NCBI GenBank assembly: GCA_016191285.1
Contig: JACPPA010000036.1
Span: 17,788-81,787 of the forward strand
Length of the DNA stretch: 64,000 nt
Reading direction: 5' to 3'
Origin: Gammaproteobacteria bacterium
GTDB taxonomy: Bacteria; Pseudomonadota; Gammaproteobacteria; Ga0077536
Shown here: positions 15,847 through 50,428 of the stretch, in pieces
Position numbering within the stretch: the stretch's first letter is position 1
Layout of the letters: each line of letters opens with the position of its first letter
Notes under the pieces: model-generated
Told to the model about the DNA's origin: nothing
The model's input: only the letters and a program-made list of their open reading frames with translations
Database searches by the model: none
Translations under genes and position numbers: made by a program

Positions 15847-15939
15847 GAATAAACCCCGTTGGAGTTAGGGACTGCCATTCTAGCCTGAGCGATGGATTGG
15901 CTGGCAGTGCTCGGCCACCTGGCTGGTACTCACGGACAG

Positions 15940-17192: not shown

Positions 17193-17214
17193 TTGAAATC
17201 ACCGCCCTGCGGGT

Positions 17215-32340: not shown

Positions 32341-32348
32341 GCGTATCC

Positions 32349-34588: not shown

Positions 34589-35788
34589 TTACTCGGCGCG
34601 AAGCGCCTCGACGGGGTCGAGGCGCGCCGCGCGCACCGCCGGCGCGAGGCCGGCGGTAATGCCGATCACAACGGCAAAACCCAACGCTGCGCCGGCGTAC
34701 GGCCAGGCCACTTGGACCGGGATCGTGGGCGCAATGGTGCGAAGTAATGTCACTGCGCCGACCGCCAACACGACTCCTGCCGCGCCGCCGATCGCGCCAA
34801 GTGCGGCCGCCTCAAGCAGGAAGCAGCGCAAAATGTCGCCGTGGGTAGCGCCCAACGCGCGCAGCAAGCCCACTTCGCCAACGCGCTCGGTCAACGCAAT
34901 GGTCATGATCGTCGCGATTCCCACCGCGCCGACCACGAGCGATATTCCGCCCAGGGCGGCGACGCCGGCCGTCAGTACCGTCAAAATTGAACCCATGACT
35001 TCGAGCATTTTGTCTTGCGCCGTTAACGAGAAATCTTCCTGCCCATGCCGTGCGATCAATAGCCGTTTGATCTCCGCCGACACATGAGCGGAACTTAAGC
35101 CCGGACGGTACAGCACATCGATTTCATGTACTCCATTGCGATTGAAGAGCGCTGCCGCCTTGCTTACCGGCACGTAGAGCGTGTCGTCCAAATCGAAGCC
35201 CAGGAATTGGCCCTTGGGCTGCATGACCCCGGCCACGCGAAAGCTATCTTCGCCAACCCGGATCCGCGCACCCAGCGGATTGGCACGGCCGAACAACTCG
35301 GTGTAGAGCTTGGCGCCCAGCACCGCGAAGGCTTGCGCGTTGTCGTAATCCTGATTCGGCAGAAAGCGACCGATGGCGAGCGTCATCCGGAACGTGCGCG
35401 GCAGCGCCGCCGAGACCCCAAAAATCATCGTGCGCCGCTTGCGATCGCCAAATTTTACTTGGGCGTTACCCTGAATGACGGGGACGATGCCATCGAGCGA
35501 ACTCAACCGGCTCAAGGCACGGGCATCGTCGATCGACAGCGGACGGTTAGTCGAGATTTGACCGACCGAGCCGCCGAGCGTGCTCGCTTTACCGGGTTGA
35601 ATCGCGATCAGATTGGTGCCGAATTGGGTAAACTCGCCCACCACAAATTGTCGCAGGCCTTCACCCAAGGCCGTTAACAAGACCACGGTCGCGATGCCAA
35701 CGGCAATGCCCAAAATCGTTAACAGCGAACGTTGACGATGCGCGCGCACCGCGCCGATTGAAAACTTAATCAAGTCCGGCACGCGCAT
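34589..35788 (-). CDS. MacB/FtsX-type ABC permease
   Basis: RSLLTILGIAVG, TERVGEVGLLRALGA, PAVRAARLDPVEALR. Confidence 0.92.
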   Translation of the reverse strand: MRVPDLIKFSIGAVRAHRQRSLLTILGIAVGIATVVLLTALGEGLRQFVVGEFTQFGTNLIAIQPGKASTLGGSVGQISTNRPLSIDDARALSRLSSLDGIVPVIQGNAQVKFGDRKRRTMIFGVSAALPRTFRMTLAIGRFLPNQDYDNAQAFAVLGAKLYTELFGRANPLGARIRVGEDSFRVAGVMQPKGQFLGFDLDDTLYVPVSKAAALFNRNGVHEIDVLYRPGLSSAHVSAEIKRLLIARHGQEDFSLTAQDKMLEVMGSILTVLTAGVAALGGISLVVGAVGIATIMTIALTERVGEVGLLRALGATHGDILRCFLLEAAALGAIGGAAGVVLAVGAVTLLRTIAPTIPVQVAWPYAGAALGFAVVIGITAGLAPAVRAARLDPVEALRAE

Positions 35789-35790
35789 CG

Positions 35791-37008
35791 TTAGTGTCCG
35801 CGCGCGGACAGCGCTTGTACGGGATCAAGCTGACTGGCGCGGCGCGCCGGGCCGACGCCGAAAATAATCCCGCAGCCGAGCGAAATGGTGAGCGCGCCAA
35901 GCGCGCCCCACCACGGCACCGCCGCCGGAAAACTGGGGTAGAGCAAGCGCAGTATCAGCGCGCCGCTCATGCCAAGCAAGGTACCGAACGCCGCACCGGC
36001 CACCGTCAGCAACAGGGCTTCGAGTAAAAACAACGTACGGATGTCGCGCGCGGTCGCGCCCAAGGCTTTGAGCAGTCCAATCTCGGACCGGCGCTGCGCG
36101 ATCGCGACCAACATCACATTCATGACCAGGATGCCGGCGACCAGCAAGCTAATGCCCGACACGGCGGCGACCGCGAGCGTGATCGTGCGCAGAATGCGAT
36201 CGAAGGTCGCGACCACACTGTCCTGCGTGACGATGGTGACATCATCCTCGCCTTCGTGCCGCGTTTTGATCACGCGACGGACGGCATTCGCGGCGCGTTC
36301 GATGCCGTGCGAGTCGTGGGTTTCAACGAGGATGCGAAAGAGGCCTTCGGTATTGAACAGGGCTTGGGCGGCGGCGACCGGGAGCAGCACAAGGTCATTG
36401 AAATCATTGCCGAGCGACACCCCGGTATTGTCCAGGATGCCGACTACCCGGCAACGCCGATCGCCGATCCTAAGCCAGGTGCCGAGGGCCGATTGATTAG
36501 CATAGAGTTCGTGGGCAAGGGTCGGACCGAGCACGCAACTCGCATCGACACGTGCGGTGTCCGCGGCCGTCAGGAAGCGGCCGGTCGCCACCACCAGATG
36601 CCGCACCTCAAGCATCGCGGCCGACACGCCCAAGATCGTGGCCTCGCGTTCCTTGCCGCTCGTCACCGACACATTGGCGCTGCCGACGACGATCGGCACC
36701 ACGCGCTGCACGTCGGGTAAGCGCAATAACGCGGCGGCGTCGCTTAACCGTAATTCGCGCGGCGTTTCGCCCATTACCGGCGGTAGGCCGCCGACGGTTT
36801 CATTGCGGCCCGGCAAGACTACCAGAAGGTTGGTCCCGAGCGCGCTGAATTCACCGACCACATACTGGCGTGCGCCATCTCCCAACGCGGTCAACAGCAT
36901 CACGGCGGCGACGCCAATCGTCGTCGCCAAGCCAATCAGCAACGAACGCATGCCCTGGGCGCGCAACGAACCCACGGCGAGCGCCAGCGTATCGTGCAAT
37001 TGCAACAT
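35791..37008 (-). CDS. MacB/FtsX-type ABC permease
   Basis: QRRSEIGLLKALGA, PARRASQLDPVQAL; start may be GTG 37014. Confidence 0.92.
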   Translation of the reverse strand: MLQLHDTLALAVGSLRAQGMRSLLIGLATTIGVAAVMLLTALGDGARQYVVGEFSALGTNLLVVLPGRNETVGGLPPVMGETPRELRLSDAAALLRLPDVQRVVPIVVGSANVSVTSGKEREATILGVSAAMLEVRHLVVATGRFLTAADTARVDASCVLGPTLAHELYANQSALGTWLRIGDRRCRVVGILDNTGVSLGNDFNDLVLLPVAAAQALFNTEGLFRILVETHDSHGIERAANAVRRVIKTRHEGEDDVTIVTQDSVVATFDRILRTITLAVAAVSGISLLVAGILVMNVMLVAIAQRRSEIGLLKALGATARDIRTLFLLEALLLTVAGAAFGTLLGMSGALILRLLYPSFPAAVPWWGALGALTISLGCGIIFGVGPARRASQLDPVQALSARGH

Positions 37009-37103
37009 GGCCACATTCTACGATCACCATGGTTGCATTGGAGTGCCGACTTCGGACATTCTGCACACGCCCCACGCCCGCCGCGGCCAAACGAGAGCAA
37101 CGC

Positions 37104-37853
37104 ATGGCAAAACTCTATGGTGACACCGACAAGTTCGGTGAGCAGAATTCCACGCCCGTGGTGGAAGCCTTTCATACCGCGGTGAGAGATCTGGTACGCC
37201 GGAAATTCGTTGAGTCCGGACAATCATGGTCCGAATTTGTATTCGGCGCGGCCCAGCAAGTCATCACGCAATCCGAGTTCGCGGCGATCGATGCACGCTT
37301 GCTCGACTATGGACATCGCTATGTGTGGTCCGCCGTGGTCTCACAAGAAGAACGCCCGGAAGCCTATCTCCCGGGTCAGACCGCCGGCGAGGATTTGAGC
37401 AATTTCAGTTTTGAACATCCCGATGCGATCACGGCCCTGCCGGACGCGCAAGGACTCGAGTTGCGTGGCGTCGGCGACAACGTGGTCAAGTACGCAACGG
37501 ATTTGATCGGCACCGCGCGCTATGTGCGATCGAGCGCAACGGTGCTGGCGTATCTCAATAGCGGTGTGCCACCAGGAACCATCGCCGTGATCGACGATTC
37601 AGGCGGCACCCTGACCGCACCCATCCTCGAACAGTTCACTGGCGTGCTCTGCGCTGGCGGCACGGTGCGGTCTCACTTGGGGATATTGACGCGCGAATAC
37701 GGCATCCCGTGTTTTATGAATGCGAGAATATCGGGCCTTAAAGAAGGCGATACCGTGCGCCTGGAAACGACAGCCGTGGCCAAAACCGCCGAGGCGTATC
37801 AAAAAGGCGTGGAGATGACGGGTCGCGTGTGGCGGGTGAATAAGCCAGCATGA
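37104..37853 (+). CDS. stand-alone PEP-utilising enzyme mobile (phospho-His swivel) domain protein with an unknown N-terminal half
   Basis: GVLCAGGTVRSHLGILTREYGIPC..LKEGDTVRL matches the swivel-domain consensus GGxxSHxAIxARExGIP. Confidence 0.8.
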   Translation: MAKLYGDTDKFGEQNSTPVVEAFHTAVRDLVRRKFVESGQSWSEFVFGAAQQVITQSEFAAIDARLLDYGHRYVWSAVVSQEERPEAYLPGQTAGEDLSNFSFEHPDAITALPDAQGLELRGVGDNVVKYATDLIGTARYVRSSATVLAYLNSGVPPGTIAVIDDSGGTLTAPILEQFTGVLCAGGTVRSHLGILTREYGIPCFMNARISGLKEGDTVRLETTAVAKTAEAYQKGVEMTGRVWRVNKPA

Positions 37854-39397
37854 ACCTTACCTACGCACAATTGCTCGAAACCAATAATCTCATTCAGCAG
37901 AACACCGACGAGACGTATTGGCTGTGTCTGACGCGCACCGTGCAAGAGTCAAAACTTTTTCCCGTATCGCCGTACATGATTTTGTCGTACTTCATGGCGT
38001 TTTATCGCTATCCCACCTTGCTGCGTAAGATCGAAACGCACATGCGGGCCGAGGAAATCGGCGATCGCGTGCGCAGTCGCGGTATCAAATGTCAGAATCC
38101 CGCCATGGGTTGGGGATTGCCGAATTTTTATCTGCTCGGACGTCAATATCTGATCTCGATGGGGCTTATCCGGCCGCAAGACGCGGTTGACGACATCATC
38201 TATGTGCTCGATTTCTGGAAGCGCTTTCAACTGGCCTGGCACCGCAACGATGCGCATATGACCAATCGCGAATTCGGGCATCGGGCGCAAATTCTGCCCG
38301 AGCGCCGCTTGCAAATCTTTCACGCGGATATGTATGACTGCGCCGAAGGCGACCCGCTGCACACCGCGGCGCAGGCCTTCATGGCGGCGACCTCGCAGTA
38401 TGGGTTTCTGGTGTCCTGCGAGAGTCGAATCGCCTTGCATAACCAAGGACCGTACAAGCTCGATGACGAGCGCGAAATGATCGTGCGCGATTTCATGGAT
38501 CTCGCCGAAGGCGACTATCCGTGGCTCGATGGCGTGGCGGCCGACGTGCCCTACAACAACCTGACCGTGCCGATGGCGGTCAAGGGCTGTCACTTCAATA
38601 TCATCGACGACTGGGGCTCGTTCGAGTCGCAACCCGAATTCAAATCGCATCACATGGTCGGCGTCGGACTTTATACCTCGGATTGTCTGTCTGACACTTA
38701 CCTGCCCGTGGGTATGGAGAGTCGCGAGGAGCTGACGCATACCTTCGAAATGCTGACCCAGAAAGCCAAGGACGCCACCGGCCGCCTGTGGAAACGGATC
38801 GCGGGCTGGACCCGCGATCAAATGATCGACGCGGGCGCCATCGTCTACTTCAGTATCTGCAAGGACATCGCGCACGTCGCGGGTTGCTATGACAGTGCGG
38901 ATTGGATGCTCATCGATGAGCGCGCCGAGCGTTTTCGGCCGTTGCTCAATGACGAATACGGCAACCTGTCGTTATACGAGATCCTGGGACCGCTATCTCA
39001 TCCGGCACAGCGCGGACACGACTATCAATTGGCGCAGCACGCGAATATTCCGGCGAATACTTATTCGCTGATCCCGTATTCGATTTTGGACGATGCCGAT
39101 TACACGCGAACCTGCGGCGAGCTCAAGCCTGGAATTACTTATCTTGAACCCAAACAAGATCGCTATCGCACGACGCAGGGTGTGTTGTCGCTCGCCGAGT
39201 ACAACCGGCGGGTTAAAGCCTTCACACCCTCCTTGTGTGGCGAAAAATATCGCTATAAATGCGAGAGCTGGCTTAAATACCATCACGACACGCCGCTCGC
39301 CGACGAGATGTATCGAATCGAACAGGTCGCCTCGCGGCGGCTCAAAGATTGCGGCGCCGGATTGAAACGCGCGGATATTGAAAAACTCCGCGATTGA
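37850..39397 (+). CDS. hypothetical soluble protein, 515 aa
   Basis: long ORF with ATGA overlap to the swivel-domain gene; no family recognised. Confidence 0.85.
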   Translation: MNLTYAQLLETNNLIQQNTDETYWLCLTRTVQESKLFPVSPYMILSYFMAFYRYPTLLRKIETHMRAEEIGDRVRSRGIKCQNPAMGWGLPNFYLLGRQYLISMGLIRPQDAVDDIIYVLDFWKRFQLAWHRNDAHMTNREFGHRAQILPERRLQIFHADMYDCAEGDPLHTAAQAFMAATSQYGFLVSCESRIALHNQGPYKLDDEREMIVRDFMDLAEGDYPWLDGVAADVPYNNLTVPMAVKGCHFNIIDDWGSFESQPEFKSHHMVGVGLYTSDCLSDTYLPVGMESREELTHTFEMLTQKAKDATGRLWKRIAGWTRDQMIDAGAIVYFSICKDIAHVAGCYDSADWMLIDERAERFRPLLNDEYGNLSLYEILGPLSHPAQRGHDYQLAQHANIPANTYSLIPYSILDDADYTRTCGELKPGITYLEPKQDRYRTTQGVLSLAEYNRRVKAFTPSLCGEKYRYKCESWLKYHHDTPLADEMYRIEQVASRRLKDCGAGLKRADIEKLRD

Positions 39398-39438
39398 CTT
39401 CTCGCGCCGGGCGCGACTAGCACTGGATACGTCAACTC

Positions 39439-40905
39439 ATGCAAATCGGACAACTCATCCGTCGCGCCGCCCAATACTTTAGTGATGCCGCGTGTCTGAT
39501 CGAAGGCCCGCGCCAGATCAGCTTCAAGGAATTCGATGCCGCGACCGATCGCCTGGGCAACGCCTTGCTGGCCCACGGCCTGCAGCCCGGCGAGCGCGTC
39601 GGCGTGCTGCTTTCGAACAGTATCGAATGCCTGATCGCCTACTACGCGGTGGCCAAGGCCGGGTTGGTGCGCGTTGGGCTCAACACGCGCGAGACCGTCG
39701 ATAATCATCAATACAAGATCACCGACGCTGGTTGTCGTGCGGTAATCCACGCCGGTGTGGCTGGCATCGACGCCGAAATGTTAATTGGCCCGGATCGATT
39801 ACTGACCATGATCGCGACCGGCCGCGCCGCGCCGTGTGCGATCGATCGCGCACTCGATGCGCCGTATCGCTTGGGCTATACCGGTGGCACCACGGGCAAA
39901 GCGAAAGCTGTTACGTTAACCACGCGCGGCGAGCTGGCGGAACTGGCGGCGTTTTTGCTCGATTTGATTCCAAACATTCGCGCCGGCGACACGTTCCTGC
40001 ACGCGGCGCCGATCGCGCACGCCTCGGGCGCGTTTTTCTTGCCGGCGCTGGCGCGCGGCGCCACCTCGCTCATCATGCCGAAATTCGATCCGGCGGAATT
40101 TATCCGGCTGGCCGAAGCCACCCAGGCGAGCATGACCTTCCTGGTGCCGACGATGCTCGCGATGATTTTGGAAGAGCCTGTGCTGGCGCGCGCGAAGCTC
40201 GCGTTTAATACCATCAGCTACGGCGCCTCACCCATTGCCCCGGCGGTGCTCGAGCGCGCGCAGGCGCGGTTTGGCCCAGTGTTCGCGCAAACCTATGGGC
40301 AGGCCGAAAGTCCGATGGTGATCACCTGTTTGAAACCGCATGAACAATCGCGCATTGGATCGTGCGGCCGGCCGTTTACGTTTGTCGACGTGGCGGTGTT
40401 GGACGATCAAGACCAGCCGTTGCCGCCAGGTGAAATCGGCGAAATTTGTTGCCGCGGTCCCCAGACGATGGCGTATTACTGGAATCGACCCGCGGCCACC
40501 GAACAGGCCTTCCGCAACGGTTGGTTACACACCGGCGATATCGGTCGCATGGATGAGGCAGGGTACTTCTATATTCTCGATCGCAAAAACGACATGTTGA
40601 TCTCCGGCGGTTACAACGTCTATCCGCGCGAAGTCGAAGAGGTGCTTCTCGAAGTCGAAGGCGTGATCGAAGCGGCAGTGATTGGTATCGCGGATGAAAA
40701 ATGGGGCGATCGCGTGCATGCGGTGGTCGCCGGCCGCGCCGATCTCGATCCTGAACTCATTCTGGCGCATGCGCGCTCGCGGCTCGCCAATTACAAACGG
40801 CCTAAGGCCATCGAGATCTGGCCCGAATTGCCGAAAAGCGCGGCGAATAAAATTCTCCGGCGTGAAATTCGCGATCGCATTGTGGCGCGCGGGAAACGTG
40901 AATAG
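39439..40905 (+). CDS. acyl-CoA synthetase/AMP-acid ligase
   Basis: YTGGTTGKAK, TYGQAE, HTGDIG, DRKNDMLISGG, LPKSAANK. Confidence 0.92.
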   Translation: MQIGQLIRRAAQYFSDAACLIEGPRQISFKEFDAATDRLGNALLAHGLQPGERVGVLLSNSIECLIAYYAVAKAGLVRVGLNTRETVDNHQYKITDAGCRAVIHAGVAGIDAEMLIGPDRLLTMIATGRAAPCAIDRALDAPYRLGYTGGTTGKAKAVTLTTRGELAELAAFLLDLIPNIRAGDTFLHAAPIAHASGAFFLPALARGATSLIMPKFDPAEFIRLAEATQASMTFLVPTMLAMILEEPVLARAKLAFNTISYGASPIAPAVLERAQARFGPVFAQTYGQAESPMVITCLKPHEQSRIGSCGRPFTFVDVAVLDDQDQPLPPGEIGEICCRGPQTMAYYWNRPAATEQAFRNGWLHTGDIGRMDEAGYFYILDRKNDMLISGGYNVYPREVEEVLLEVEGVIEAAVIGIADEKWGDRVHAVVAGRADLDPELILAHARSRLANYKRPKAIEIWPELPKSAANKILRREIRDRIVARGKRE

Positions 40906-40952
40906 CTGCTCGAATTTGATACGCAAGGCGCTGTTATCCGCTGGTGCATCTT

Positions 40953-41014
40953 GTGGGAGCCGCTTTAGCGGCGAATCTTTATCGAGGCTCCTTCGCTGCT
41001 AAAGCAGCTCCCAC
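40953..41014. repeat. REP doublet (REPIN)
   Basis: GTGGGAGCCGCTTTAGCGGCGAA ... TTCGCTGCTAAAGCAGCTCCCAC. Confidence 0.85.
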
Positions 41015-41099
41015 AAAATCTAAGTGTCGATTTATCGAATTTGATTGCGACACCAGGACACCAAGATTTAAGAGTAGCGTTGGACGCTGCGGAGACGAA

Positions 41100-41705
41100 A
41101 TGATGAATGAAATGCATCTGGCCCTGCATGGGCTAGCGATCAAAAAACATGCGGGACCGGCCGCCGTCGCGGCCACCGTGGGCTTAAGCGAAACGCGGGT
41201 TGCCGAATTACTGCAGCAGGCCGTGACCACCGGTCGTGCGAGCGAAGCACAAGGGGCGTATCTGCTGTCGCCAGCGGGACGCCTGATTATCGAGAGCCTG
41301 TATTCCAAGCTGTTCGATCGCGAGCGCCAAGACGGCGCGTTGGCCGGGGCTTACGAAAAATTCGAACGCATCAACACCGAACTGAAACAACTGATTACCG
41401 ATTGGCAGACCCTCGACGTCGGGGGCCAAAAAGTTCGCAACGATCATTCCAACAAAGATTATGATGCGCGGGTCTTGGACCGTCTTGGCGCCTTGCACGA
41501 GCGATTCACGCCGGTACTGGCGCAGCTCTGTCGCGGCGTGCCACGCCTCGACCTTTATCGGGAAAAGCTCGATCACGCGCTGGACCGCGCGGAAGCCGGG
41601 CAGGTGCAATGGGTAAGCGATGCGAAAATCGACAGTTTCCACACCGTATGGTTTGAAATGCATGAGGATTTATTGCGCATTTTGGGCCTTCAACGCGAGG
41701 AGTAG
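41100..41705 (+). CDS. winged-helix protein resembling M. tuberculosis Rv1126c
   Basis: N-terminal wHTH-like region (LSPAGR); FERINTELKQLITDWQ..NDH..YDARVLDRL..IDSFHTVWFEMHEDLL matches recalled Rv1126c motifs. Confidence 0.75.
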   Translation: MMNEMHLALHGLAIKKHAGPAAVAATVGLSETRVAELLQQAVTTGRASEAQGAYLLSPAGRLIIESLYSKLFDRERQDGALAGAYEKFERINTELKQLITDWQTLDVGGQKVRNDHSNKDYDARVLDRLGALHERFTPVLAQLCRGVPRLDLYREKLDHALDRAEAGQVQWVSDAKIDSFHTVWFEMHEDLLRILGLQREE

Positions 41706-41737
41706 GGCGGGCGCGTTTTCGTTTTACCCGATGACCC

Positions 41738-43480
41738 ATGGCAATTGAATTAGGCGCGTGGACCCTCGCCCTTAACGGCGCGAGCCTGCCCGAAAAATCC
41801 TTAATCGGCGGCAAGGCGTGGTCGATCGCGCGCCTTCGGGCATTCGATCTTCCGGTGCCGCCGGCCTTTGTTATCACCGTCAAAGCGTGTAATGCCTACC
41901 TACGCGATGGTGTAATCCCCGCGACGCTCGACGCCGAAATTCGCGCAGGCATGGCGTGGATCGAAGCACAGGCGGCGCGCCAATTTGGCGGCAGTGCCAA
42001 ACCCCTGCTGGTCTCGGTGCGCTCGGGCGCGATGATCTCGATGCCCGGCATGATGGATACCGTGCTCAATCTTGGCATTAATAACGCGACCGCGGCCGCC
42101 TTGGCCGCGGAAGCCGCCGATCCCGAATTCGCGCGCGACACGCACCGGCGTTTTCTCGATCTGTACGCGCGAATCGTATTGCGCGCGACGCTGCCGGAAT
42201 TAGCTTCCACGGCAGCGATTGACGATTGGCAGCGCGCGATTTTCGAAGCCACGGATCAGCGCGTGCCTGAAGATCCGTATGCGCAGTTGTGGGGCGCCAT
42301 CCACGCCGTGTTCGAATCGTGGAATTCGCGCCGCGCGCGGCGTTACCGCGAGCATCACGGTATCGCGCATGATTTGGGCACTGCGGTGACGGTCCAGGCC
42401 ATGGTGTTCGGTAATCTCGACGATCGATCAGGCACCGGCGTGCTGTTCAGCCGGAATCCACTGACCGGCGATCCCGCGCCCTACGGCGAATACCTGGCGC
42501 GTGCGCAGGGCGAAGACGTGGTGTCCGGCCGCTTTACGCCGCAACCGTTGGCCGCGTTGGCCTCGGCGATGCCCGACCTCCATGCCCAACTGTTGGCCGC
42601 CGCCGTGACCTTGGAACGCGAGAACGGCGACGTGCAGGATATTGAATTCACGATCCAACATGCCGAGCTCTATCTATTGCAAACGCGCGCAGCCAAACGC
42701 GCACCCGCGGCGGCCGTGCGCTTTGCCTGCGACATGGTGCACGAAGGCCGTATCGATCGGGCCACTGCGTTGTCGCGGCTCAGCGCCGAACAAGTGCGCG
42801 TGCTCTTAAGCCCGCGTCTGGCGTCTGGCGTGACGGCGCGTGCGGTCGCGCAGGGCGAAGCGGCCTGCCAAGGCGTCGGTGTTGGCGTGGTGGTGATGAG
42901 CAGCGATGAGGCCGAGCGTCGCGCGCAGGCCGGTGAAGCAGTGGTGTTGGCGCGTGAGACAACGAGTCCGGATGATGTGCACGGCATGCTCGTGGCGCGC
43001 GCGGTGATTACCGAGCAGGGTGGCGCGACCTCGCACGCGGCGGTCGTGAGCCGTGCGCTCGGCGTGCCGTGCGTGGTGGGTTGCGGGGTCGGTAGTTTGG
43101 CGGCGCTTACGGGGACAATGGTCACCGTCGATGGCGCGAGCGGCCAGATTTACGCTGGTAATCTGCCGGTGCTGGCGCCCAACGAGCGCGATGATCCCGC
43201 GCTCTGCGAACTCTTGCGATGGGCCGAGCGCGTGTGTCCGATCACGGTCCTCGACGAGACCGCGCCGGTGGCCGAAGTCTACGATCTCGATGTCGTTAAA
43301 GGCGGTGAAGACGCGACGCAGTTGGCGACCTTGCTCGCTGGCCGCAAAATTGCCAAGGGCGGCGCGATTACCAGCGATGAGGGTGTGAGAGCGGCGCTGC
43401 AAGCTGGCGTGACCACTATCGTCGCACGGCATCGCTTGCCGGTGATGCTGGCCGCCATCGCGGCGACGCGTGGCGACTGA
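41738..43480 (+). CDS. PPDK-like dikinase: ATP-grasp plus phospho-His domains, no pyruvate-binding barrel
   Basis: IGGKA, LLVSVRSGA..SMPGMMDTVLNLG, VQAMVFGN, AQGEDVVSG, QDIEFT, LLQTR, GGATSHAAVVSR; ends ~100 aa after the His domain. Confidence 0.9.
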   Translation: MAIELGAWTLALNGASLPEKSLIGGKAWSIARLRAFDLPVPPAFVITVKACNAYLRDGVIPATLDAEIRAGMAWIEAQAARQFGGSAKPLLVSVRSGAMISMPGMMDTVLNLGINNATAAALAAEAADPEFARDTHRRFLDLYARIVLRATLPELASTAAIDDWQRAIFEATDQRVPEDPYAQLWGAIHAVFESWNSRRARRYREHHGIAHDLGTAVTVQAMVFGNLDDRSGTGVLFSRNPLTGDPAPYGEYLARAQGEDVVSGRFTPQPLAALASAMPDLHAQLLAAAVTLERENGDVQDIEFTIQHAELYLLQTRAAKRAPAAAVRFACDMVHEGRIDRATALSRLSAEQVRVLLSPRLASGVTARAVAQGEAACQGVGVGVVVMSSDEAERRAQAGEAVVLARETTSPDDVHGMLVARAVITEQGGATSHAAVVSRALGVPCVVGCGVGSLAALTGTMVTVDGASGQIYAGNLPVLAPNERDDPALCELLRWAERVCPITVLDETAPVAEVYDLDVVKGGEDATQLATLLAGRKIAKGGAITSDEGVRAALQAGVTTIVARHRLPVMLAAIAATRGD

Positions 43481-43540
43481 CGTCGACGCGGCAATTTCAG
43501 GCTAACCTTCAATCAAACAATTTGTGCTACGGAAACCAGT

Positions 43541-44050
43541 ATGGCGAATGCAGACATCCCCAAAGTAAGCGCCGAGGACATCGAGAGCCTCATCGAACTC
43601 TTTAAGCAGTCGGGCTGGGATGAAATGCATCTTAAGACTGCAGATCTTGAACTGTTCCTCTCCAATGATCCGAATGCAACGGGTCCGCGTCAGACACCGG
43701 CAATCGCTGTGGCGGGACCCGCGGTCGCTGGTTCAGCCGCCATGCCGACCACCGCCGCGGCGCCGGCGAGTGCGGCGACGATTGGCCATGCAGCGGCCAT
43801 TCCGGACGGCACGGTTGCGATCCGCGCGCCCAACCTCGGCACTTTTTATCGCGCACCCAAGCCCGGCGCGCCTCCCTATGTCGAATTGGGTCAGCAGATC
43901 GAAATCACCACTGAGGTGGGTCTGATCGAAGTCATGAAACTGTTCACGCCGGTGCAGGGAAGCGTGCGCGGCGTGGTCCGGGAGATCCGTGCCAAGGATG
44001 GGCAAATGGTTGAGTTCGATGAGCCGTTGATCATCGTCGAACCGAACTAG
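43541..44050 (+). CDS. biotin carboxyl carrier protein
   Basis: Ala/Pro linker, GTFYRAP, EVMKL biotinylation motif. Confidence 0.93.
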   Translation: MANADIPKVSAEDIESLIELFKQSGWDEMHLKTADLELFLSNDPNATGPRQTPAIAVAGPAVAGSAAMPTTAAAPASAATIGHAAAIPDGTVAIRAPNLGTFYRAPKPGAPPYVELGQQIEITTEVGLIEVMKLFTPVQGSVRGVVREIRAKDGQMVEFDEPLIIVEPN

Positions 44051-44055
44051 CGTTA

Positions 44056-45423
44056 ATGCCAATCTCGCGCGTCTTAAGCGTTAACCGCGGCGAAATTGCC
44101 GCGCGCGTGGTGCGTGCCGCGCAGGCGCTCGGGATCGAAGCCGTGCAAGCGGTGTCCGCCGCCGATCGCGACAGTACCGCGGCACGGCTCGCCGATCGCA
44201 CCGTGGTGATCGGGCCCGCGGCTTCGCGCCTCAGTTATCTCGATGCGCCGTTGCTGGTGCATGCCGCCAAAGCCACTGGCTGCGATGCGCTTCATCCCGG
44301 CTATGGCTTTCTGTCCGAACGTGAACATTTGGCGCGCCTCTGCGGCGAACACGGCATTACGTTTGTTGGCCCGGCGCCCGAGACCATCGCGGCGTTGGGC
44401 GACAAGCTACAAGCGAAGGCGATTGCGCAAGCCGCGGGTGTTCCGTTGGTGCCAGGGACGGCAAAAATCGCGGATGCCGCGGCCGCGAAGGCGGCGGCGG
44501 AAGCACTTGGATTTCCGGTGTTGTTGAAGGCTTCGGCTGGCGGCGGAGGCCGCGGCATGTTCATTGCCCGGCGTGCCGAAGAGATCGAAGCTTCGTTCGA
44601 TAAATCCTCGAATGAAGCGCTGGAAGCCTTTGGCGACGGCACCATGTACATGGAGCGCTTCGTCGAAAACGCGCGCCATGTCGAAGTCCAGGTGTTCGGC
44701 GACGGCAGCGGCAAAGTGCTGCATTTTGGCGAGCGCGATTGTTCGATCCAGCGGCGCTACCAAAAAGTGTTTGAAGAAGCGCCATGCGCGGCGATGCCGG
44801 CCAAGCTGCGGAAACTTCTGCACGACTCAGCGGTCGCCTTGGTGGCGTCGCTCAAGTATCGCAATGCCGGCACCGTGGAATTTCTATATGACGTCGATCG
44901 CGCGGCGATTTATTTCATCGAAGTTAACGCGCGCATCCAGGTCGAACATCCGGTGTCCGAGCAGGTCACCGGCTATGATCTGGTGCAACTGCAGTTTCGG
45001 ATCGCCGGTGGCGAGCCCCTGCGCTGGTCGCAAGCGCAGGTGCCGGTACAGGGACACGCGATCGAGTGCCGCATCAATGCCGAAGATCCGACGCGGAATT
45101 TTCAACCGAGCCCGGGACGGATCACGCGCTGGGCACCGCCACACGGCGCCGGGATTCGTCTCGACAGCCATTGTTATGACGGCTATCTGGTGCCGCCGTT
45201 CTACGATTCGATGATCGGCAAGCTGATTGTCACGGCGGCGACACGCGCCGATTGCGTCACCCGTTTGCAAGCGGCGCTCGCCGCTTTCACAATCGAGGGC
45301 CTGATCACCAATCTACCGCTGCTTAAATTTATCGCGGCGCATCCGGATTTTGCCGCCAATCGATTAAACACTCGCTGGCTCGAGCAGACCTTGCTGCCGG
45401 GTTTTGAAGCTTCGCAGGAGTAA
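44056..45423 (+). CDS. biotin carboxylase
   Basis: NRGEIA, HPGYGFLSE, GGGGRGM, ERDCSIQRR, RIQVEHPV, CRINAED. Confidence 0.95.
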   Translation: MPISRVLSVNRGEIAARVVRAAQALGIEAVQAVSAADRDSTAARLADRTVVIGPAASRLSYLDAPLLVHAAKATGCDALHPGYGFLSEREHLARLCGEHGITFVGPAPETIAALGDKLQAKAIAQAAGVPLVPGTAKIADAAAAKAAAEALGFPVLLKASAGGGGRGMFIARRAEEIEASFDKSSNEALEAFGDGTMYMERFVENARHVEVQVFGDGSGKVLHFGERDCSIQRRYQKVFEEAPCAAMPAKLRKLLHDSAVALVASLKYRNAGTVEFLYDVDRAAIYFIEVNARIQVEHPVSEQVTGYDLVQLQFRIAGGEPLRWSQAQVPVQGHAIECRINAEDPTRNFQPSPGRITRWAPPHGAGIRLDSHCYDGYLVPPFYDSMIGKLIVTAATRADCVTRLQAALAAFTIEGLITNLPLLKFIAAHPDFAANRLNTRWLEQTLLPGFEASQE

Positions 45424-45430
45424 GGTTCCG

Positions 45431-46891
45431 ATGGCCCATATTGAATTTCTCGACGAGACCATGCGCGACGGCCAGCAAAGCCTGTGGGGCATGCGCATGC
45501 AAGCCGGCATGGCGTTACCCGTGGCGTCGTTGATCGATCGCACCGGCTTTCGGGTGATCGACCTCACGGGTTCGTCGATGTTCGAAGTGCTAATCAAGTA
45601 CTGTCAAGAGAATCCGTGGCAAGGCCTTGACCTCTTAACCCAGGCCATGCCGCGGACCAAAATTCGTGGTGGCATGCGCTCCAATGCGTCGGTGACCTTT
45701 AGCGTCACGCCGGATGCGTTGATGGATGCGTGGATGCGGCAACTGAATGTGCACGGTTGCCGCAGTTTTTGGATCTACGACGTGCTGTTCAATATCGACA
45801 AGATGCATCGCCTGGCCAAAGTCGCGAAGGAGTTTGGTTCGGAAGTCGCCGGCGCGATCATGTTCACCTTGAGCCCGGTGCATTCCGATGCCTACTATGC
45901 CGACAAAGCGGACAAGCTTTCGGCGTGCAAGGATATCGATACCTTGCTGCTGTACGACACCGCTGGCGTGCTCGAAAAAGAACGCATGCAGACCTTGATC
46001 CCGGCGCTCATCGCCAACGCGCGCGGCAAGCCCATTGAATTCCATTCCAACAATCTACTGGGCCAGTCCGCCAAAGCGTATCTAGATGCGGTGGAACTTG
46101 GTGTACGCATTTTGCACACGGCGAGTCGGCCGATGGCGAACGGCCCGTCGGTGCCGTCGACCGAAATCATGGTGCGTAATATTGAATTGCTCGGGCACAC
46201 GCATTCGCTCGACACCTCGTTGCTGCCGCCAGTCGCCGCGCATTTCGAGAAAGTGGGTAAGGCCGCCGGATTTTTAGTCCACCAATACGCCGAATACGAC
46301 ATGTTATCGATCCAACATCAAATTCCGGGCGGCATGGTCGGCACGATGAAGGCGCAGCTGGTGCAGCACGGCATGGCGGAGCGATTGGAAGCGGTGTTGG
46401 CGGAGACCGCGGTGGTCCGGCGCGAACTTGGGTTTCCCGGCATGGCGACGCCGTTCAGCCAATTGGTCGGCACGTTGGCCGTGCTGAACATCGTCACCGG
46501 CAAACGTTATTCGGTGATCCCCGACGAAGTCATTCAGTACGCGTGCAAGCATTATGGCGAAACCGTCGCGCCCATCGATCCCACTGTGCTCGACAAGATC
46601 ATGGCCGCGCCACGCGCCAAGGAGATCGCCACGCATCCACCGGAGCAACCGAGCTTAGCCGAGCTGCACCGACGCTACGGCACCGATAACGACGACGAAT
46701 TGATCCTGCGCGCGCTGGTGCCCGAGGCTGATTTAAATAAGATGTGGGCGGCGGGGCCGGTTAAAACCACCTATCCGTATCTATCGTCACCCGAACTCGA
46801 TCAAGTGCGACGTTTGATGCAAGTGGCAACCGCGCCCGTGGTGCAGATCAAAGCGGATCGATTAAATCTGTCGTTACGGAAATTTAAGTAG
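45431..46891 (+). CDS. pyruvate carboxylase B/oxaloacetate decarboxylase alpha-like carboxyltransferase, no biotinyl domain
   Basis: DETMRDGQQSL, HQIPGGM, VRRELGFPGMATPFSQLVG. Confidence 0.88.
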   Translation: MAHIEFLDETMRDGQQSLWGMRMQAGMALPVASLIDRTGFRVIDLTGSSMFEVLIKYCQENPWQGLDLLTQAMPRTKIRGGMRSNASVTFSVTPDALMDAWMRQLNVHGCRSFWIYDVLFNIDKMHRLAKVAKEFGSEVAGAIMFTLSPVHSDAYYADKADKLSACKDIDTLLLYDTAGVLEKERMQTLIPALIANARGKPIEFHSNNLLGQSAKAYLDAVELGVRILHTASRPMANGPSVPSTEIMVRNIELLGHTHSLDTSLLPPVAAHFEKVGKAAGFLVHQYAEYDMLSIQHQIPGGMVGTMKAQLVQHGMAERLEAVLAETAVVRRELGFPGMATPFSQLVGTLAVLNIVTGKRYSVIPDEVIQYACKHYGETVAPIDPTVLDKIMAAPRAKEIATHPPEQPSLAELHRRYGTDNDDELILRALVPEADLNKMWAAGPVKTTYPYLSSPELDQVRRLMQVATAPVVQIKADRLNLSLRKFK

Positions 46892-46958
46892 CGGTCTACC
46901 AACGATGAACGCAATGTTGTCAGGACAGCGATGGTTTAATTGTGGGACGTTACTTCTT

Positions 46959-47116
46959 GTGGGAGCCGCTTCAGCGGCGAATCGTCCCTCCGCAGAACTC
47001 ACCGTCATTGGAAGTAGTGAAACGACCAAGCTTTTCCAGAAAGTGGCACAAGATGGATGGCTTCGCTTTGGCTCACAACGATGGCGCAAAAGATTCGCGG
47101 ATAAATCCGCTCCCAC
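46959..47116. repeat. REP pair with long spacer
   Basis: GTGGGAGCCGCTTCAGCGGCGAA ... TTCGCGGATAAATCCGCTCCCAC. Confidence 0.75.
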
Positions 47117-47158
47117 AAGTAGCGTCATATCATTTGCGACAATGTGAAAGAGAAAATC

Positions 47159-48346
47159 ATGCGTCGTGCAGTAATTATTGATGTTGTCCGCTCGCCCTTC
47201 GGCCGCGGCCGCGAAGACGGCGCGCTCGCCGGCCTTCACCCGGTCGATCTCTATGCACAGGTCTTACAAGGCCTAGTCAAGCGTACCCGCATCGATCCAG
47301 CGCTTATCGAGGATGTGATCACCGGCTGCGTGATTCAAGTCGCCGAGCAGGCAGGGAATATTGGGCGCCAAGCCGTACTCGCCGCGGGCTTTCCGGAATC
47401 CGTGCCGGCGGTCACGCTGGATCGCAAGTGTGGCTCGGCGCAGCAGGCGATGGATTTCGCGGCGCAAGGCGTGATCGCCGGCGCCTACGATGTGGTGATC
47501 GCCGGCGGCGTGGAAATGATGGGCACGGTGCCGATGCGGATCAATCGCATGGGCAAGGATAGCGAAGGGCCGGGATTTCGTGCGCGCTATCCGGCCGGGA
47601 CGGTGCACCAGGGGGTCTCCGCCGAACGCGTCGCAGGACGTTATGGGCTTACGCGCGTTGAACAAGACGCGTATTCCGTGCGCTCGCATTCGCGCGCCGC
47701 TGCCGACCAGGCGCAATCCGCGCGCGATATCATTTCGATCGCGGTGCCGACGGCTGATGGCGCCACCCGCCAAGTGGCGCAGGACGAAGGAATCCGGCCG
47801 AACACCACCGCGGAAAAACTCGCGACGTTGAAATGTGCGTTTGAAGACGCCGCGTTCGCGACGCGCTTCCCGGAAATTCAGTGGAGCGTAACGGCCGGCA
47901 ATGCGAGCCAAATCTCGGATGGCGCGAGCGCCATATTGATCGTGGAAGAAAAAGTTGCCGCGCGCTTAGGACTGAAACCACGCGCGGCCGTGACGGGTTT
48001 TGCGGTGGTGGGCGATGATCCGCTGATGATGCTGACCGCGATTATTCCAGCGACCCGGAAGCTTTTGCAGCGCGCCGGCATTGCACTCGATAAAGTTTCG
48101 GCGTACGAAGTTAACGAAGCGTTTGCGTCGGTGCCACTCGCCTGGCAGAAAGCGTTGGACGCCGATCCCGAGCGATTGAATGTGTTCGGTGGCGCGATCG
48201 CCATCGGTCATCCGGTCGGCGCGTCGGGCGGTCGACTGACGGCGAATTTGCTCCGCGCCTTGGAAGTCACTCGTGGTCAATACGGGATTCAAACGATGTG
48301 CGAGGCGGGCGGTATGGCCAACGCCACGCTTATCGAGCGACTGTAA
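47159..48346 (+). CDS. thiolase (acetyl-CoA C-acyltransferase)
   Basis: DRKCGSA catalytic Cys, NEAFA, GHPVGASG, MCEAGG. Confidence 0.95.
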   Translation: MRRAVIIDVVRSPFGRGREDGALAGLHPVDLYAQVLQGLVKRTRIDPALIEDVITGCVIQVAEQAGNIGRQAVLAAGFPESVPAVTLDRKCGSAQQAMDFAAQGVIAGAYDVVIAGGVEMMGTVPMRINRMGKDSEGPGFRARYPAGTVHQGVSAERVAGRYGLTRVEQDAYSVRSHSRAAADQAQSARDIISIAVPTADGATRQVAQDEGIRPNTTAEKLATLKCAFEDAAFATRFPEIQWSVTAGNASQISDGASAILIVEEKVAARLGLKPRAAVTGFAVVGDDPLMMLTAIIPATRKLLQRAGIALDKVSAYEVNEAFASVPLAWQKALDADPERLNVFGGAIAIGHPVGASGGRLTANLLRALEVTRGQYGIQTMCEAGGMANATLIERL

Positions 48347-48366
48347 GGTTATTCGACGTTCCGCCT

Positions 48367-48450
48367 CCCCTCACCCCGGCCCTCTCCCGCAAGGGGAGAG
48401 GGAGTAATGCGAAAGCGCGATCTTTCCCCTCTCCCCTTGCGGGAGAGGGG
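48367..48450. repeat. BoxC-like purine/pyrimidine palindromic repeat
   Basis: CCCTCACCCCGGCCCTCTCCCGCAAGGGGAGAGGG ... CCCCTCTCCCCTTGCGGGAGAGGGG. Confidence 0.7.
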
Positions 48451-48508
48451 AATGGAAAGCGTCAATAGCGAAAACGTTTGATTGAATTAGAACAGCGAGG
48501 TAGGTGAA

Positions 48509-49291
48509 ATGGGTCGCGTACAAGACAAGGTTACGATTATCACCGGTGCCGGCACCGGCATCGGTCGCGCCTGCTTTGAACTCTTCGCGCGTGAAGGCGC
48601 GACCGTCATTGGCGTGTCGCGCACGCAATCGAATCTCGATGCGGCCTTGGCCGCGGTCCGCGCCGCCGGCGGTAGCGGCATGGTGCTCGCCAAAGATTTA
48701 TCAAAACCCGCAAGCGCGGATGAGATCGTTGCCGCCACGCTACACACCTACGGCCGTATCGATGTGCTGGTGCATTCTGCAAGTGTGGGCTGGAGCTGGG
48801 GCGATAAGAGTCCGGGCTCGATGCTGCCGTTGGCGGAAACCACCCCCGAAAAATGGAGGGAAGTGATCGGCTTCAACCTCGACGCCGCGGCCTTTATCAA
48901 CCGCGTTTGCTTGATCCAAATGTTGAAGCAAGGGCACGGCTCGATCGTCAACGTCGCGAGCATTTCCGGGTTGGTCGGCATGCCAACCGCACATACTTAC
49001 TGTGCTGCCAAAGGTGGCGTAATCAATCTCACGCGTTCGATCTCGACCGCCTATGCCAAAGATGGCATCCGCGCCAACGCGGTGTGTCCCGGTTACACCG
49101 ACACGCCGATGATAGCGCCGGTGATGGGTCTCTTCGACGACAACGCCGTCGCGACCCAGTTGACGCCGATGGCGCGCGCTGGCACGCCGCTAGAAATGGC
49201 CTACGGCTGTTTGTATCTCGGCTCGGACGAAGCGTCGTATTGCAATGGAACGATACTGATCATCGATGGCGGGACCACCGCGCGGCAGTAA
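48509..49291 (+). CDS. short-chain dehydrogenase/reductase
   Basis: TGAGTGIG, NVASIS, YCAAK, CPGYTDT, IDGG. Confidence 0.94.
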   Translation: MGRVQDKVTIITGAGTGIGRACFELFAREGATVIGVSRTQSNLDAALAAVRAAGGSGMVLAKDLSKPASADEIVAATLHTYGRIDVLVHSASVGWSWGDKSPGSMLPLAETTPEKWREVIGFNLDAAAFINRVCLIQMLKQGHGSIVNVASISGLVGMPTAHTYCAAKGGVINLTRSISTAYAKDGIRANAVCPGYTDTPMIAPVMGLFDDNAVATQLTPMARAGTPLEMAYGCLYLGSDEASYCNGTILIIDGGTTARQ

Positions 49292-49390
49292 ACCCTTCCT
49301 GCTCGTTTTCGATTTGACCGATTCATTGCCGCAAACCACAGGAAACGTTGGCTCGATGCCATCAGCTCAATCTTATAAGCAGAGACTCTC

Positions 49391-50428
49391 ATGACGGAGG
49401 CCGAGCGATTTCCCTTTGTTGAAGTGCACGGCGCCGCGCACGCGCGTGGCCACGCCTATGGCACGGCGTTTCGTGAGCGGATTCGAGCGACATGGCGGTT
49501 CTACGTGGGTACTGTTTTTGCGTCGAGCAATTTGTCGGTGCCGCAGATCGCGCAACGCGCCGCGCGCGTGCGCGAACTCATTTTTGATTTCAATGCCGAG
49601 TATTGCACTGAGATTGAGGCCGTCGCGGCAGCCTCCGGCCTCGCGAACTGGGAGGTCTATGCGCTTAATGCACGGACTGAAATATTGAATGCCGAAGTCG
49701 GTGAATGCACCGCGGTCTTTCTGCCGGAATCCCGCGTGCTCGGTCAAACCTGGGATTGGATCGAAGCGCTGGAAGCTTTAGTCGCCGTCACCCGATACGT
49801 GCGTGACGATGGGCACCGCATCGTGACGTTGGCGGAACCCGGTCAGCTCGCGAAGATTGGAATGAATTCTGCCGGTATCGGCGTGTGTTTGAATTTTCTG
49901 GCGGCGCCGCATGCGCTAGAGGGCGTGCCGGTCCATGTGCTAATTCGGGCGATCTTGGATTGCCGAGGAATGGACGAGGTGAGGCAGGTAATTGCGCGCG
50001 CGGGCTATGGCAAAGCGAGTCATTTTTTGATCGCTGATGATCGAGGGGAGGTCTTGAGCATCGAATTCGAAGGCACGGGTAGCGCCTTGGTGGAACCTGT
50101 TGACGGCATCTACGCCCACACCAACCATTGCATCGCCGCGACACGCGGCGCCAAGCGTTACGTCATCCCTACCTCGGCCGAGCGCCTGGTGGCGGCCCAC
50201 AAACTTGCGAGTCGTCAGCGCCGTGGCGGGGTGCGGGAGTTGCAACGCATCCTCGATTTCGACGACGGCACACCGGCTGCCGTACGGGTGCGCTATCGAC
50301 CGGAGCCCTTGCTGGGCGGCTCGAAGATCGGAAGTTGCGCGACCATCATCATGGATCTGCCAGCGCGCACCATGCATCTCAAGAAAGGACCAGTCGCCGA
50401 CGGCGCCTATACGAATATCGCGGTTTGA
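49391..50428 (+). CDS. C45-family Ntn hydrolase/acyltransferase
   Basis: LNARTE, GECT autocleavage Cys, GQTWDW, GMNSAG, HTNH. Confidence 0.88.
   Translation: MTEAERFPFVEVHGAAHARGHAYGTAFRERIRATWRFYVGTVFASSNLSVPQIAQRAARVRELIFDFNAEYCTEIEAVAAASGLANWEVYALNARTEILNAEVGECTAVFLPESRVLGQTWDWIEALEALVAVTRYVRDDGHRIVTLAEPGQLAKIGMNSAGIGVCLNFLAAPHALEGVPVHVLIRAILDCRGMDEVRQVIARAGYGKASHFLIADDRGEVLSIEFEGTGSALVEPVDGIYAHTNHCIAATRGAKRYVIPTSAERLVAAHKLASRQRRGGVRELQRILDFDDGTPAAVRVRYRPEPLLGGSKIGSCATIIMDLPARTMHLKKGPVADGAYTNIAV

Follow-up and report, generated by a model that had tools for sequence, protein, structure and literature searches.

Which reaction could call for a set of proteins derived from pyruvate phosphate dikinase (PPDK), a biotin carboxylase and several enzymes of coenzyme A (CoA) thioester metabolism, all encoded in one run of genes? 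This question is raised by positions 37104-50428 of a 64,000-nucleotide stretch of DNA (hereafter "the window") from a Gammaproteobacteria bacterium (GenBank assembly GCA_016191285.1, contig JACPPA010000036.1). The segment exhibits 11 open reading frames (ORFs), all on the + strand, whose domains were assigned with Pfam and NCBIfam. Ten of the 11 genes recur together in other genomes. Their products appear to form three blocks: a four-protein phosphotransferase derived from PPDK (g1, g2, g4 and g5), a three-protein biotin carboxylase (g6 to g8), and a CoA ligase with a thiolase and a short-chain dehydrogenase/reductase (SDR). We read the cluster as a conserved catabolic operon in which a secondary alcohol would be oxidised to a ketone, the ketone converted to an enol phosphate, this carboxylated to a beta-keto acid, and the acid turned into a CoA thioester for thiolysis. 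We prefer this reading while holding it somewhat more likely wrong than right.

A first-pass annotation of the locus had reported 11 co-oriented genes at 37104-50428, some of them separated by repeat-filled gaps, and had recognised no characterised pathway with this combination. The ORF list and a repeat scan agree with the first statement. Full-text literature searches agree with the second: they gave no description of the gene combination, and only the papers on the mycobacterial protein VadK touch one part of it. Most parts of the system belong to known superfamilies. Two are exceptions: for g2 no relative of known fold can be detected, and the carboxyltransferase represents an undescribed subfamily. 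The genes are as follows.

37104..37853, + strand: g1, 249 aa, family-specific N-terminal part and C-terminal phosphohistidine swivel domain
37850..39397, + strand: g2, 515 aa, core subunit, no family
39439..40905, + strand: g3, adenylate-forming acyl-CoA ligase, MenE/FadD-like (PF00501, PF13193)
41100..41705, + strand: g4, 201 aa, no family, N-terminal winged-helix fold and conserved helical C-domain
41738..43480, + strand: g5, short PPDK with ATP-grasp domain, swivel domain and family-specific tail
43541..44050, + strand: g6, biotin carboxyl carrier protein (BCCP; PF00364) with an EVMKL biotinylation motif
44056..45423, + strand: g7, biotin carboxylase (BC) of the AccC type (PF00289, PF02786, PF02785)
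45431..46891, + strand: g8, PycB/OadA-like carboxyltransferase (CT; PF00682, E-value = 9.3e-07; PF02436, E-value = 7.9e-24)
47144..48346, + strand: g9, degradative-type 3-ketoacyl-CoA thiolase (PF00108, PF02803)
48509..49291, + strand: g10, classical SDR (PF13561, PF00106)
49391..50428, + strand: g11, C45/AAT-family protein (PF03417), co-oriented, outside the conserved system

The genes g1 and g2 overlap by 4 nt. The gaps that follow measure 41 nt (g2/g3), 194 nt (g3/g4), 32 nt (g4/g5), 60 nt (g5/g6), 5 nt (g6/g7), about 7 nt (g7/g8), 252 nt (g8/g9), 162 nt (g9/g10) and 99 nt (g10/g11). Two starts differ from those of the ORF list. The g4 ORF is listed from a GTG at 40944 and reads through a repeat, which makes its first part a false N-terminal extension; orthologues use the start at 41100. 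The g8 ORF opens with a TTG at 45404, and its likely start is the ATG at 45431.

Conservation of the gene cluster

We scanned for loci containing g2, keeping one genome per species, and compared the resulting 78 loci with the 11 window proteins by tblastn. They come from gammaproteobacteria, alphaproteobacteria and actinobacteria, and cultured carriers among them include Roseiarcus fermentans DSM 24875, Rhodosalinus halophilus E84, Pseudonocardia endophytica DSM 44969 and Blastococcus jejuensis JCM 15614. Thirty-five of the loci extend at least 9 kb to either side of g2. In these, g1 is always present (35/35), followed by g4 (34), g3 and g8 (33 each), g5 (31) and g7 (30). The BCCP g6 is found in 26 of them, this being a short protein for which the match filter demanded 50% coverage. 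The SDR g10 (22/35) and the thiolase g9 (19/35) are less frequent. The first-pass annotation had included the C45 hydrolase g11 in the system; it is not conserved, no homologue being found in the 35 large loci or in the 78 loci overall.

The order g1-g2-g3-g4-g5-g6-g7-g8(-g9-g10) is retained in proteobacterial loci. Actinobacterial loci, including metagenome-assembled genomes (MAGs) labelled Nanopelagicales, carry the same genes in a rearranged order. The neighbourhoods of homologues of the 515-aa protein, which had been put forward as a check on the cluster, thus exhibit co-occurrence in all three groups. An exception is a locus with g1 and g2 only (L078). Wherever DNA upstream of g2 is available (69/69 loci), the gene immediately preceding it on the same strand is g1. 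This recurrence of gene order is far beyond chance. Within the window's own family, g2 is present in 22 of 24 other genomes sampled, mostly in two copies, and it was found in none of 17 other families of the class, each represented by one genome.

Several further genes recur near the cluster. An SCPx-type thiolase is found in 29 of the 78 loci (19 of the 35 large ones) and a GntR/FCD regulator in 27 of the 78. A SurE-like phosphatase, 41-65% identical and at most 10 kb from g2, occurs in 23 of the 78 loci; a PF13350 phosphatase and an acetoacetate-decarboxylase-family gene (PF06314) occur in 11 each. Alphaproteobacterial loci carry a sugar-type ABC transporter, and alphaproteobacterial and actinobacterial loci alike carry a second CoA ligase and two thiolase types. 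In Pseudomonadales MAGs the SurE-like gene is directly beside g1, and the window itself has a SurE-family phosphatase 3 kb downstream of the cluster (53590-54378, - strand). The PF06314 gene is accompanied by an extra SDR upstream of the cluster in alphaproteobacterial loci (positions 2839-4343 of L028, and 10 other loci).

Four MAG records carrying the cluster (L003, L017, L020 and L071) are titled Klebsiella pneumoniae or Bifidobacterium breve. Their clusters are 80-87% (or 46%) identical to environmental proteobacterial or actinobacterial versions, and these species labels look unreliable.

A predicted phosphotransferase in four proteins

The C-terminal domain of g1 matches the swivel domain family PF00391 (27.5 bits, cut-off 23.1). 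Its His191, invariant in 23 of 23 aligned sequences, is presumed to be a phospho-carrier. A second swivel domain is found in g5 (PF00391, 77.2 bits), behind an ATP-grasp domain with a strong match to PF01326 (PPDK_N, E-value = 3.5e-43). All 24 aligned sequences share the histidine of this domain, His433. The match of g5 to the PPDK model TIGR01828 stops at position 533 of 865. g5 matches NF004531 with 707 bits (cut-off 456) over model positions 7-531 of 534, a cut-off that is also passed by full-length PPDKs, over positions up to about 462. The phosphoenolpyruvate (PEP)/pyruvate TIM barrel of the PPDK family (PF02896) was found by Pfam and NCBIfam searches in none of the 11 proteins.

The core subunit g2 has no Pfam and no NCBIfam match. 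Like g1 and g4, it has no PDB sequence match at E-value ≤ 1. Its AlphaFold2 (AF2) model (pLDDT 84.5, pTM 0.87) has no Foldseek match to the PDB at E-value ≤ 1e-3, the top rows being TolC with a TM score of 0.12. A wide fold search with VIA gave a best Z of 3.4, and the ESM Atlas nothing above 0.87, in unnamed clusters only. These searches detect no known fold, which does not by itself make the fold a new one. The 914 homologues at E-value ≤ 1e-3 are all annotated as hypothetical proteins, with 60-88% identity in gamma- and alphaproteobacteria and about 48% in actinobacteria. A profile search with the g2 core collects 558 representative clusters, among them distant relatives of about 380 aa.

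Natural gene fusions connect these proteins. In four proteins of about 720 aa (P0090, P0109, P0113 and P0120), g2 is fused to g4, with g4 at the C-terminus; the fusion in P0090 exhibits 50% identity (E-value = 6e-63). Two distant relatives of the g2 core, P0173 and P0215, have an N-terminal swivel domain fused to the core, and the 777-aa P0254 consists of swivel, core and a g4-like C-terminus. Actinobacteria also possess stand-alone modules in which swivel, core, g4 and PPDK genes follow in that order without any carboxylase. The flanks of these modules (esterase, epimerase, HAD hydrolase, methyltransferase and aldehyde dehydrogenase genes) have no common theme. As the fusions show, the swivel protein, the 515-aa protein and g4 are parts of one enzyme. 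Because fusions and four-gene modules together unite swivel, core, g4 and PPDK, g2 probably stands where the pyruvate barrel would be, and we take it to be the substrate-binding, phosphoryl-accepting subunit. This accords with the first-pass annotation on three points: a barrel-less PPDK (Pfam gives only PF01326 and PF00391 in g5), an orphan of 515 aa, and a multi-subunit dikinase, in which the fusions would place the swivel, 515-aa and Rv1126c-like (g4) proteins.

One Pseudonocardia genome contains five swivel-core pairs, which look like a paralogue family with diversified specificity. Two of the pairs lie just upstream of its main cluster (L055, 2387-5447). On contig C2 of G001 (L088 and L089), two pairs lie within stand-alone modules of swivel, core, g4 and PPDK.

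The window's genome itself contains a second, reduced copy on another contig (L093; contig C50, 100000-119900), at positions 7900-12857 of that locus. The gene order there is a PF13350 tyrosine-phosphatase-family gene, g1', a gene for a 729-aa protein in which g2' is fused to g4', and an SDR. The identities are 60% for g1', 64% for g2', 52% for g4' and 53% for the SDR relative to g10. No PPDK, ligase or carboxylase was found within the approximately 8-9 kb fetched on each side, and the second copy may draw on the g5 and the carboxylase encoded by the window's cluster. An SDR thus adjoins each of the two copies in this genome. The second copy is followed by a TIR-domain protein gene (PF13676; 13037-14287 of L093, - strand) just downstream and adjoined by HlyD, ABC ATPase and MacB/FtsX-type permease genes (14474-17665). 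In a related genome (G135, contig C20; L094, 42000-61900), a stretch encodes, all on one strand, CT, BCCP, BC, g1, g2, g4 and another CT, and contains neither a PPDK nor a ligase.

The g4-g5 pair and the mycobacterial VadK

The AF2 model of g4 (pLDDT 95.3) combines the winged-helix fold with a helical C-domain bearing the motifs NDH...D and HTVWFExHE. Asn114, His116, Asp122, His181, His188 and Glu189 are invariant in this domain. Foldseek returns weak winged-helix matches only (IclR regulators and O-methyltransferase dimerisation domains, E-values about 1e-2). Given the g2-g4 fusions of other genomes, we do not take these as a sign of DNA binding. The same fusions make g4, listed as a winged helix-turn-helix protein in the first-pass annotation, a subunit rather than a regulator.

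The g4 gene is placed 32 nt upstream of g5, and a complex between the two proteins, a prediction suggested with the first-pass annotation, was modelled. The g4-g5 model scores 0.62 (runs 0.60, 0.62 and 0.64), and the best of three controls 0.00. In the calibration, 58 of 80 solved complexes attained this mark, as did 2 of 110 mismatched pairs; these counts hold only roughly because the alignments were self-supplied. The runs share at least 85% of their contacts, with a partner pLDDT of at least 87. In the modelled interface, the loop of g5 bearing His433 (residues 427-441) and parts of the ATP-grasp domain face the conserved residues 99-121 and 173-189 of g4. The modelling supports binding of g4 to g5, and we read g4 as a probable adaptor or phosphotransfer subunit on which the short PPDK docks.

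We sampled 121 genomes from the order that holds Pseudonocardia. Homologues of g4 are found in 19 of them, at 22 places, and 16 of these places adjoin an NF004531 match. The NF004531 totals include G011, a genome flagged as unpublished, and none of our statements depends on it. g2 was found in only five of the 121 genomes, and 14 of the 19 genomes bearing g4 have no g2 detectable by the g2 profile. One such genome (G105) encodes a 201-aa g4 homologue (33% identity, E-value = 1e-30) and a short PPDK (913 bits), adjoining PrpD and citrate-synthase genes; the g2 profile gave no match there.

A protein of this type has been studied in mycobacteria. The accessible text of PMC13400623 names the truncated PPDK Rv1127c VadK, with Rv1126c as its operon partner. 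VadK is described there as autophosphorylating on His422 with ATP and Mg and as more soluble when co-expressed with Rv1126c. It is proposed to be a regulatory kinase of the methylcitrate cycle that binds the enzymes of the cycle. The window's g5 resembles VadK by its full-length NF004531 match, and the g4 homologues resemble Rv1126c by their places beside such PPDKs; the layout of G105 (g4, short PPDK, PrpD and citrate synthase) fits the setting in the accessible part of that paper. It is by operon position, and not by direct sequence comparison, that g4 is set beside Rv1126c. In contrast to the mycobacterial pair, the window's pair shares its operon with g1, g2 and a biotin carboxylase, and what that text proposes for VadK is regulation rather than catalysis on a metabolite. 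The layout in G105 suggests that, in the machine encoded by the window, g4 and the short PPDK make up the half that handles ATP.

An altered carboxyltransferase

The first-pass annotation had pointed to an atypical biotin carboxylase. However, g7 is an ordinary one (NF006367, 599.4 bits, cut-off 597), with the usual motifs and a full-length alignment to solved biotin carboxylases (E-value = 1e-134). The BCCP g6 scores 111.3 bits against TIGR00531 (cut-off 115.2). The atypical protein is the carboxyltransferase g8. Its best NCBIfam match, NF006761, reaches 304.6 bits against a cut-off of 402, and all of its 16 matches lie below their cut-offs. g8 can nevertheless be aligned over about 400 residues to PycB of the two-subunit pyruvate carboxylase (5ks8; chain 5ks8_C, E-value = 3.4e-60), to the oxaloacetate decarboxylase alpha subunit OadA (2nx9) and to transcarboxylase 5S (1rqb).

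The alignment reveals four altered motifs. RDGHQS of PycB/OadA becomes RDGQQS in 45 of 49 sequences. KDMAG becomes YDTAG, with Lys replaced by Tyr, in 46 of 49. HxHxH becomes ExH[SA]NN in 46 of 49, the second His being replaced by Asn and the first retained. GGM[IL][ST]N becomes GGMxGT, with Thr/Ser replaced by Gly, in all 49 sequences. Three loci (L055, L056 and L063) are outliers in these motifs. In the pyruvate site, the Asp and two Arg are unchanged. We take the Lys of KDMAG to be the carbamylated metal ligand and the lost His to be another metal ligand. The Thr/Ser of GGM[IL][ST]N presumably shuttles a proton between pyruvate and biotin.

g8 shares with PycB, OadA and 5S the HMGL-like barrel and the PYC_OADA domain, and it is encoded next to an ordinary BCCP and BC. 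Unlike PycB, it lacks a C-terminal BCCP. Unlike PycB and OadA, it has YDTAG, ExH[SA]NN and GGMxGT as conserved motifs and scores below every curated cut-off. On these grounds g8 probably represents a distinct, previously undescribed carboxyltransferase subfamily.

CoA ligase, thiolase and SDR

The solved proteins closest to the ligase g3 are FadD8, feruloyl-CoA synthetase, MenE and malonyl-CoA synthetase, and all of its NCBIfam matches are below cut-offs. Those closest to g9 are FadA-type thiolases. For g10 they include cyclohexanol dehydrogenase and 2,3-butanediol dehydrogenase, and g10 is likely a secondary-alcohol/ketone oxidoreductase.

A possible route through an enol phosphate

How could these proteins work together? 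In the route that we tentatively prefer, g10 would oxidise a secondary alcohol to an enolisable ketone. g5, with its ATP-grasp domain and His433, would take phosphate from ATP. g4 would dock on g5 and tie it to g2, g1 would provide a second swivel histidine (His191) serving g2, and g2, replacing the pyruvate barrel, would bind the substrate. The phosphate would pass from His433 of g5, at the interface with g4, to His191 of g1 and from there to the substrate on g2. The dikinase would in this way turn the ketone into an enol phosphate, ATP being converted to AMP. g6-g8 would then transfer CO2 from carboxybiotin to the enol phosphate with release of phosphate, a reaction that would need no proton abstraction. 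g3 would ligate the resulting beta-keto acid to CoA, and a thiolase (g9 or the SCPx-type enzyme) would cleave the thioester to acetyl-CoA and acyl-CoA. The analysis shows the gene content and its conservation, the fusions, the altered carboxyltransferase motifs and a predicted g4-g5 interface; we infer the phosphate route, the intermediate (an enol phosphate) and the substrate, both in its identity and in being a ketone.

We propose this route because the recurring SDR, CoA ligases, thiolases and, in some loci, a beta-keto-acid decarboxylase homologue together correspond to the enzymes that follow ketone carboxylation in known pathways. A substrate reaching the enzyme as a ready-made enol derivative, moreover, would suit a carboxyltransferase that lacks the proton shuttle. 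The chemistry has a precedent: acetone carboxylase is proposed, in the accessible text of PMC5543143, to act via phosphoenolacetone and carboxyphosphate.

Several points weigh against this route. The ligase, thiolase and SDR all score under the curated cut-offs for defined specificities and appear to be of generic medium-chain types. The SurE-like and PF13350 phosphatases are not explained by the model, and they could mean that the product is a stable phosphoester and not a transient enol phosphate. The model offers no firm reason for two swivel histidine domains. The presumed roles of the carboxyltransferase residues follow those described for pyruvate carboxylase and OadA. The sugar-type ABC transporter of alphaproteobacterial loci may point to a hydrophilic substrate. 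The one homologue of g5 that has been studied is read by its authors, in the text accessible, as a regulatory kinase. In the window's genome, finally, the gamma subunit of acetone carboxylase (Acx; PF08882) has five matches that are strong and one that is weak, all on other contigs (C40, C3, C21, C16 and C49). These suggest several carboxylases of the Acx or acetophenone carboxylase (Apc) type in one organism, so that a further acetone carboxylase is not obviously needed. Our confidence is limited because of the generic ligase, thiolase and SDR, the unexplained phosphatases and the Acx gamma matches elsewhere.

Acetone was considered as the specific substrate and set aside: the thiolase and the ligase look medium-chain degradative, and the genome has several Acx-type gamma subunits.

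Alternative readings

Could the same architecture serve another chemistry? A hydroxyl, a phenol-like enol, a carboxyl, an amide or a lactam might be phosphorylated, possibly on a CoA thioester formed beforehand by the ligase, with the biotin carboxylase acting on the phosphorylated compound or on a later intermediate. We consider this possible, if rather doubtful. Enzymes of the PPDK family can phosphorylate hydroxyl groups, as phenylphosphate synthase and rifampin phosphotransferase do. The two kinds of phosphatase suggest a stable phosphoester, and the paired CoA ligases and thiolase types of alphaproteobacterial and actinobacterial loci fit an acid as substrate. Since swivel-core-g4-PPDK modules exist without any carboxylase, phosphorylation can be an end in itself. 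However, a carboxyltransferase of the PycB type carboxylates a carbon adjacent to a carbonyl group. The loss of the putative proton-shuttle residue in 49 of 49 sequences is best fitted by a pre-formed enol derivative, and the tight association of an SDR with each of the two copies suggests an alcohol/ketone couple.

A different possibility is that no metabolite is acted on at all, and that a histidine-kinase relay of the VadK type switches the adjacent carboxylase and beta-oxidation-like enzymes. This agrees with the description, in the accessible part of PMC13400623, of a short PPDK as a regulatory kinase binding methylcitrate-cycle enzymes. Since most of the g4-bearing genomes sampled (14/19) are without a detectable g2, the g4-PPDK pair can also work without g1 and g2. 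Yet the degree of conservation of g2 across classes (60-88%) is that of an enzyme, g2 is found fused both to a swivel domain and to g4, and g1 and g2 are never separated in the 69 loci. The five paralogous swivel-core pairs in one genome, furthermore, suggest diversified substrate specificity. On balance a purely regulatory relay seems improbable to us.

A multi-subunit interconversion of pyruvate, PEP and oxaloacetate for anaplerosis is very improbable because, although the nearest named families are PPDK, PycB and OadA and g8 keeps two Arg and the Asp in its pyruvate site, the low-scoring carboxyltransferase (304.6 bits, cut-off 402) has lost residues that pyruvate carboxyltransferases need (the presumed carbamyl-Lys, one His ligand and the Thr/Ser), the PF02896 barrel is in none of the proteins, the CoA ligase (33/35 loci), thiolases and SDR would have no use, and three ATP equivalents would be spent on a reaction normally needing one.

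Relation to known carboxylation systems

The enol-phosphate route that we prefer resembles two known systems without coinciding with either. Phenylphosphate synthase, an enzyme of anaerobic phenol degradation, is a split, PEP-synthase-like enzyme that phosphorylates an inert substrate via a phosphohistidine, and a carboxylase then uses the product. The logic is the same as that proposed here, an inert substrate being phosphorylated and then carboxylated. The phenylphosphate carboxylase, however, is of the UbiD type and not biotin-dependent. A UbiD-type domain is found in none of the 11 window proteins, whose carboxylase genes encode a BCCP, a BC and a PycB-like CT. The presumed substrate subunit g2, in further contrast, has no detectable relative among solved structures.

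The second likeness is to the acetone and acetophenone carboxylases. Acx and Apc belong to the hydantoinase/oxoprolinase family and are described as biotin-independent. In the acetophenone pathway an SDR alcohol dehydrogenase precedes carboxylation. CoA activation and thiolysis come after the carboxylation in both the acetone and the acetophenone pathways, as they would in the window. Unlike Acx and Apc, the window's 11 proteins include neither hydantoinase A/B-type nor gamma subunits. The accessible text of PMC5543143 describes an ATP-dependent ketone carboxylation with a proposed enol phosphate and activated CO2, and it sets acetone carboxylase against biotin-dependent carboxylases.

A broader proposal goes further, although we think it rather unlikely. 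The cluster would encode a third, biotin-dependent class of ketone carboxylase, in which a four-subunit, PPDK-derived relay over two swivel histidines leads to a catalytic subunit of unseen fold, and the enol phosphate made there is carboxylated by a PycB-like CT without carbamyl-lysine and proton shuttle. VadK/Rv1126c would then be the ATP-handling half, retained when the substrate half disappeared or was replaced.

Intergenic repeats and flanking genes

Palindromic repeats occupy the three long gaps g3-g4, g8-g9 and g9-g10:

40948-41023, g3-g4 gap: pair of REP-like palindromic repeats (I4, arms 89% complementary)
46950-47122, g8-g9 gap: pair of REP-like palindromic repeats (I3, D5, D7)
48380-48449, g9-g10 gap: perfect 23-nt inverted repeat (I9, 100% complementary)

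The REP-like unit D5 of 40948-41023 is 97% identical to a copy at 46955-46983. Terminator-like sites are not enriched relative to shuffled sequences (18 found, 17.7 expected). A plasmid search gave a sole match of 58 nt and no sign that the cluster is plasmid-borne. Among sequencing runs, the stretch was located in a single DNA run, possibly its source, and the cluster in no RNA run. Upstream, the cluster adjoins two MacB/FtsX-type permease genes (34589-37014, - strand), beyond which lie genes for an AMP-binding CoA ligase (547 aa) and an enoyl-CoA hydratase (30697-33149, - strand).

Biological significance

If the proposed pathway is true, the cluster would represent a new route for activating and carboxylating inert carbonyl compounds, and it would combine phosphohistidine swivel enzymes with biotin carboxylases, two toolkits that are not known to work together. 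A function would thereby be given to 914 related proteins that lack a Pfam family and in which no known fold is detected. The virulence-linked short PPDK of mycobacteria and its partner would gain an ancestral enzymatic context, with a hint at the kind of partner to be expected. Bacteria of freshwater, soil and the sea commonly carry the system, which may have a part in turning over small organic compounds, volatile or dissolved.

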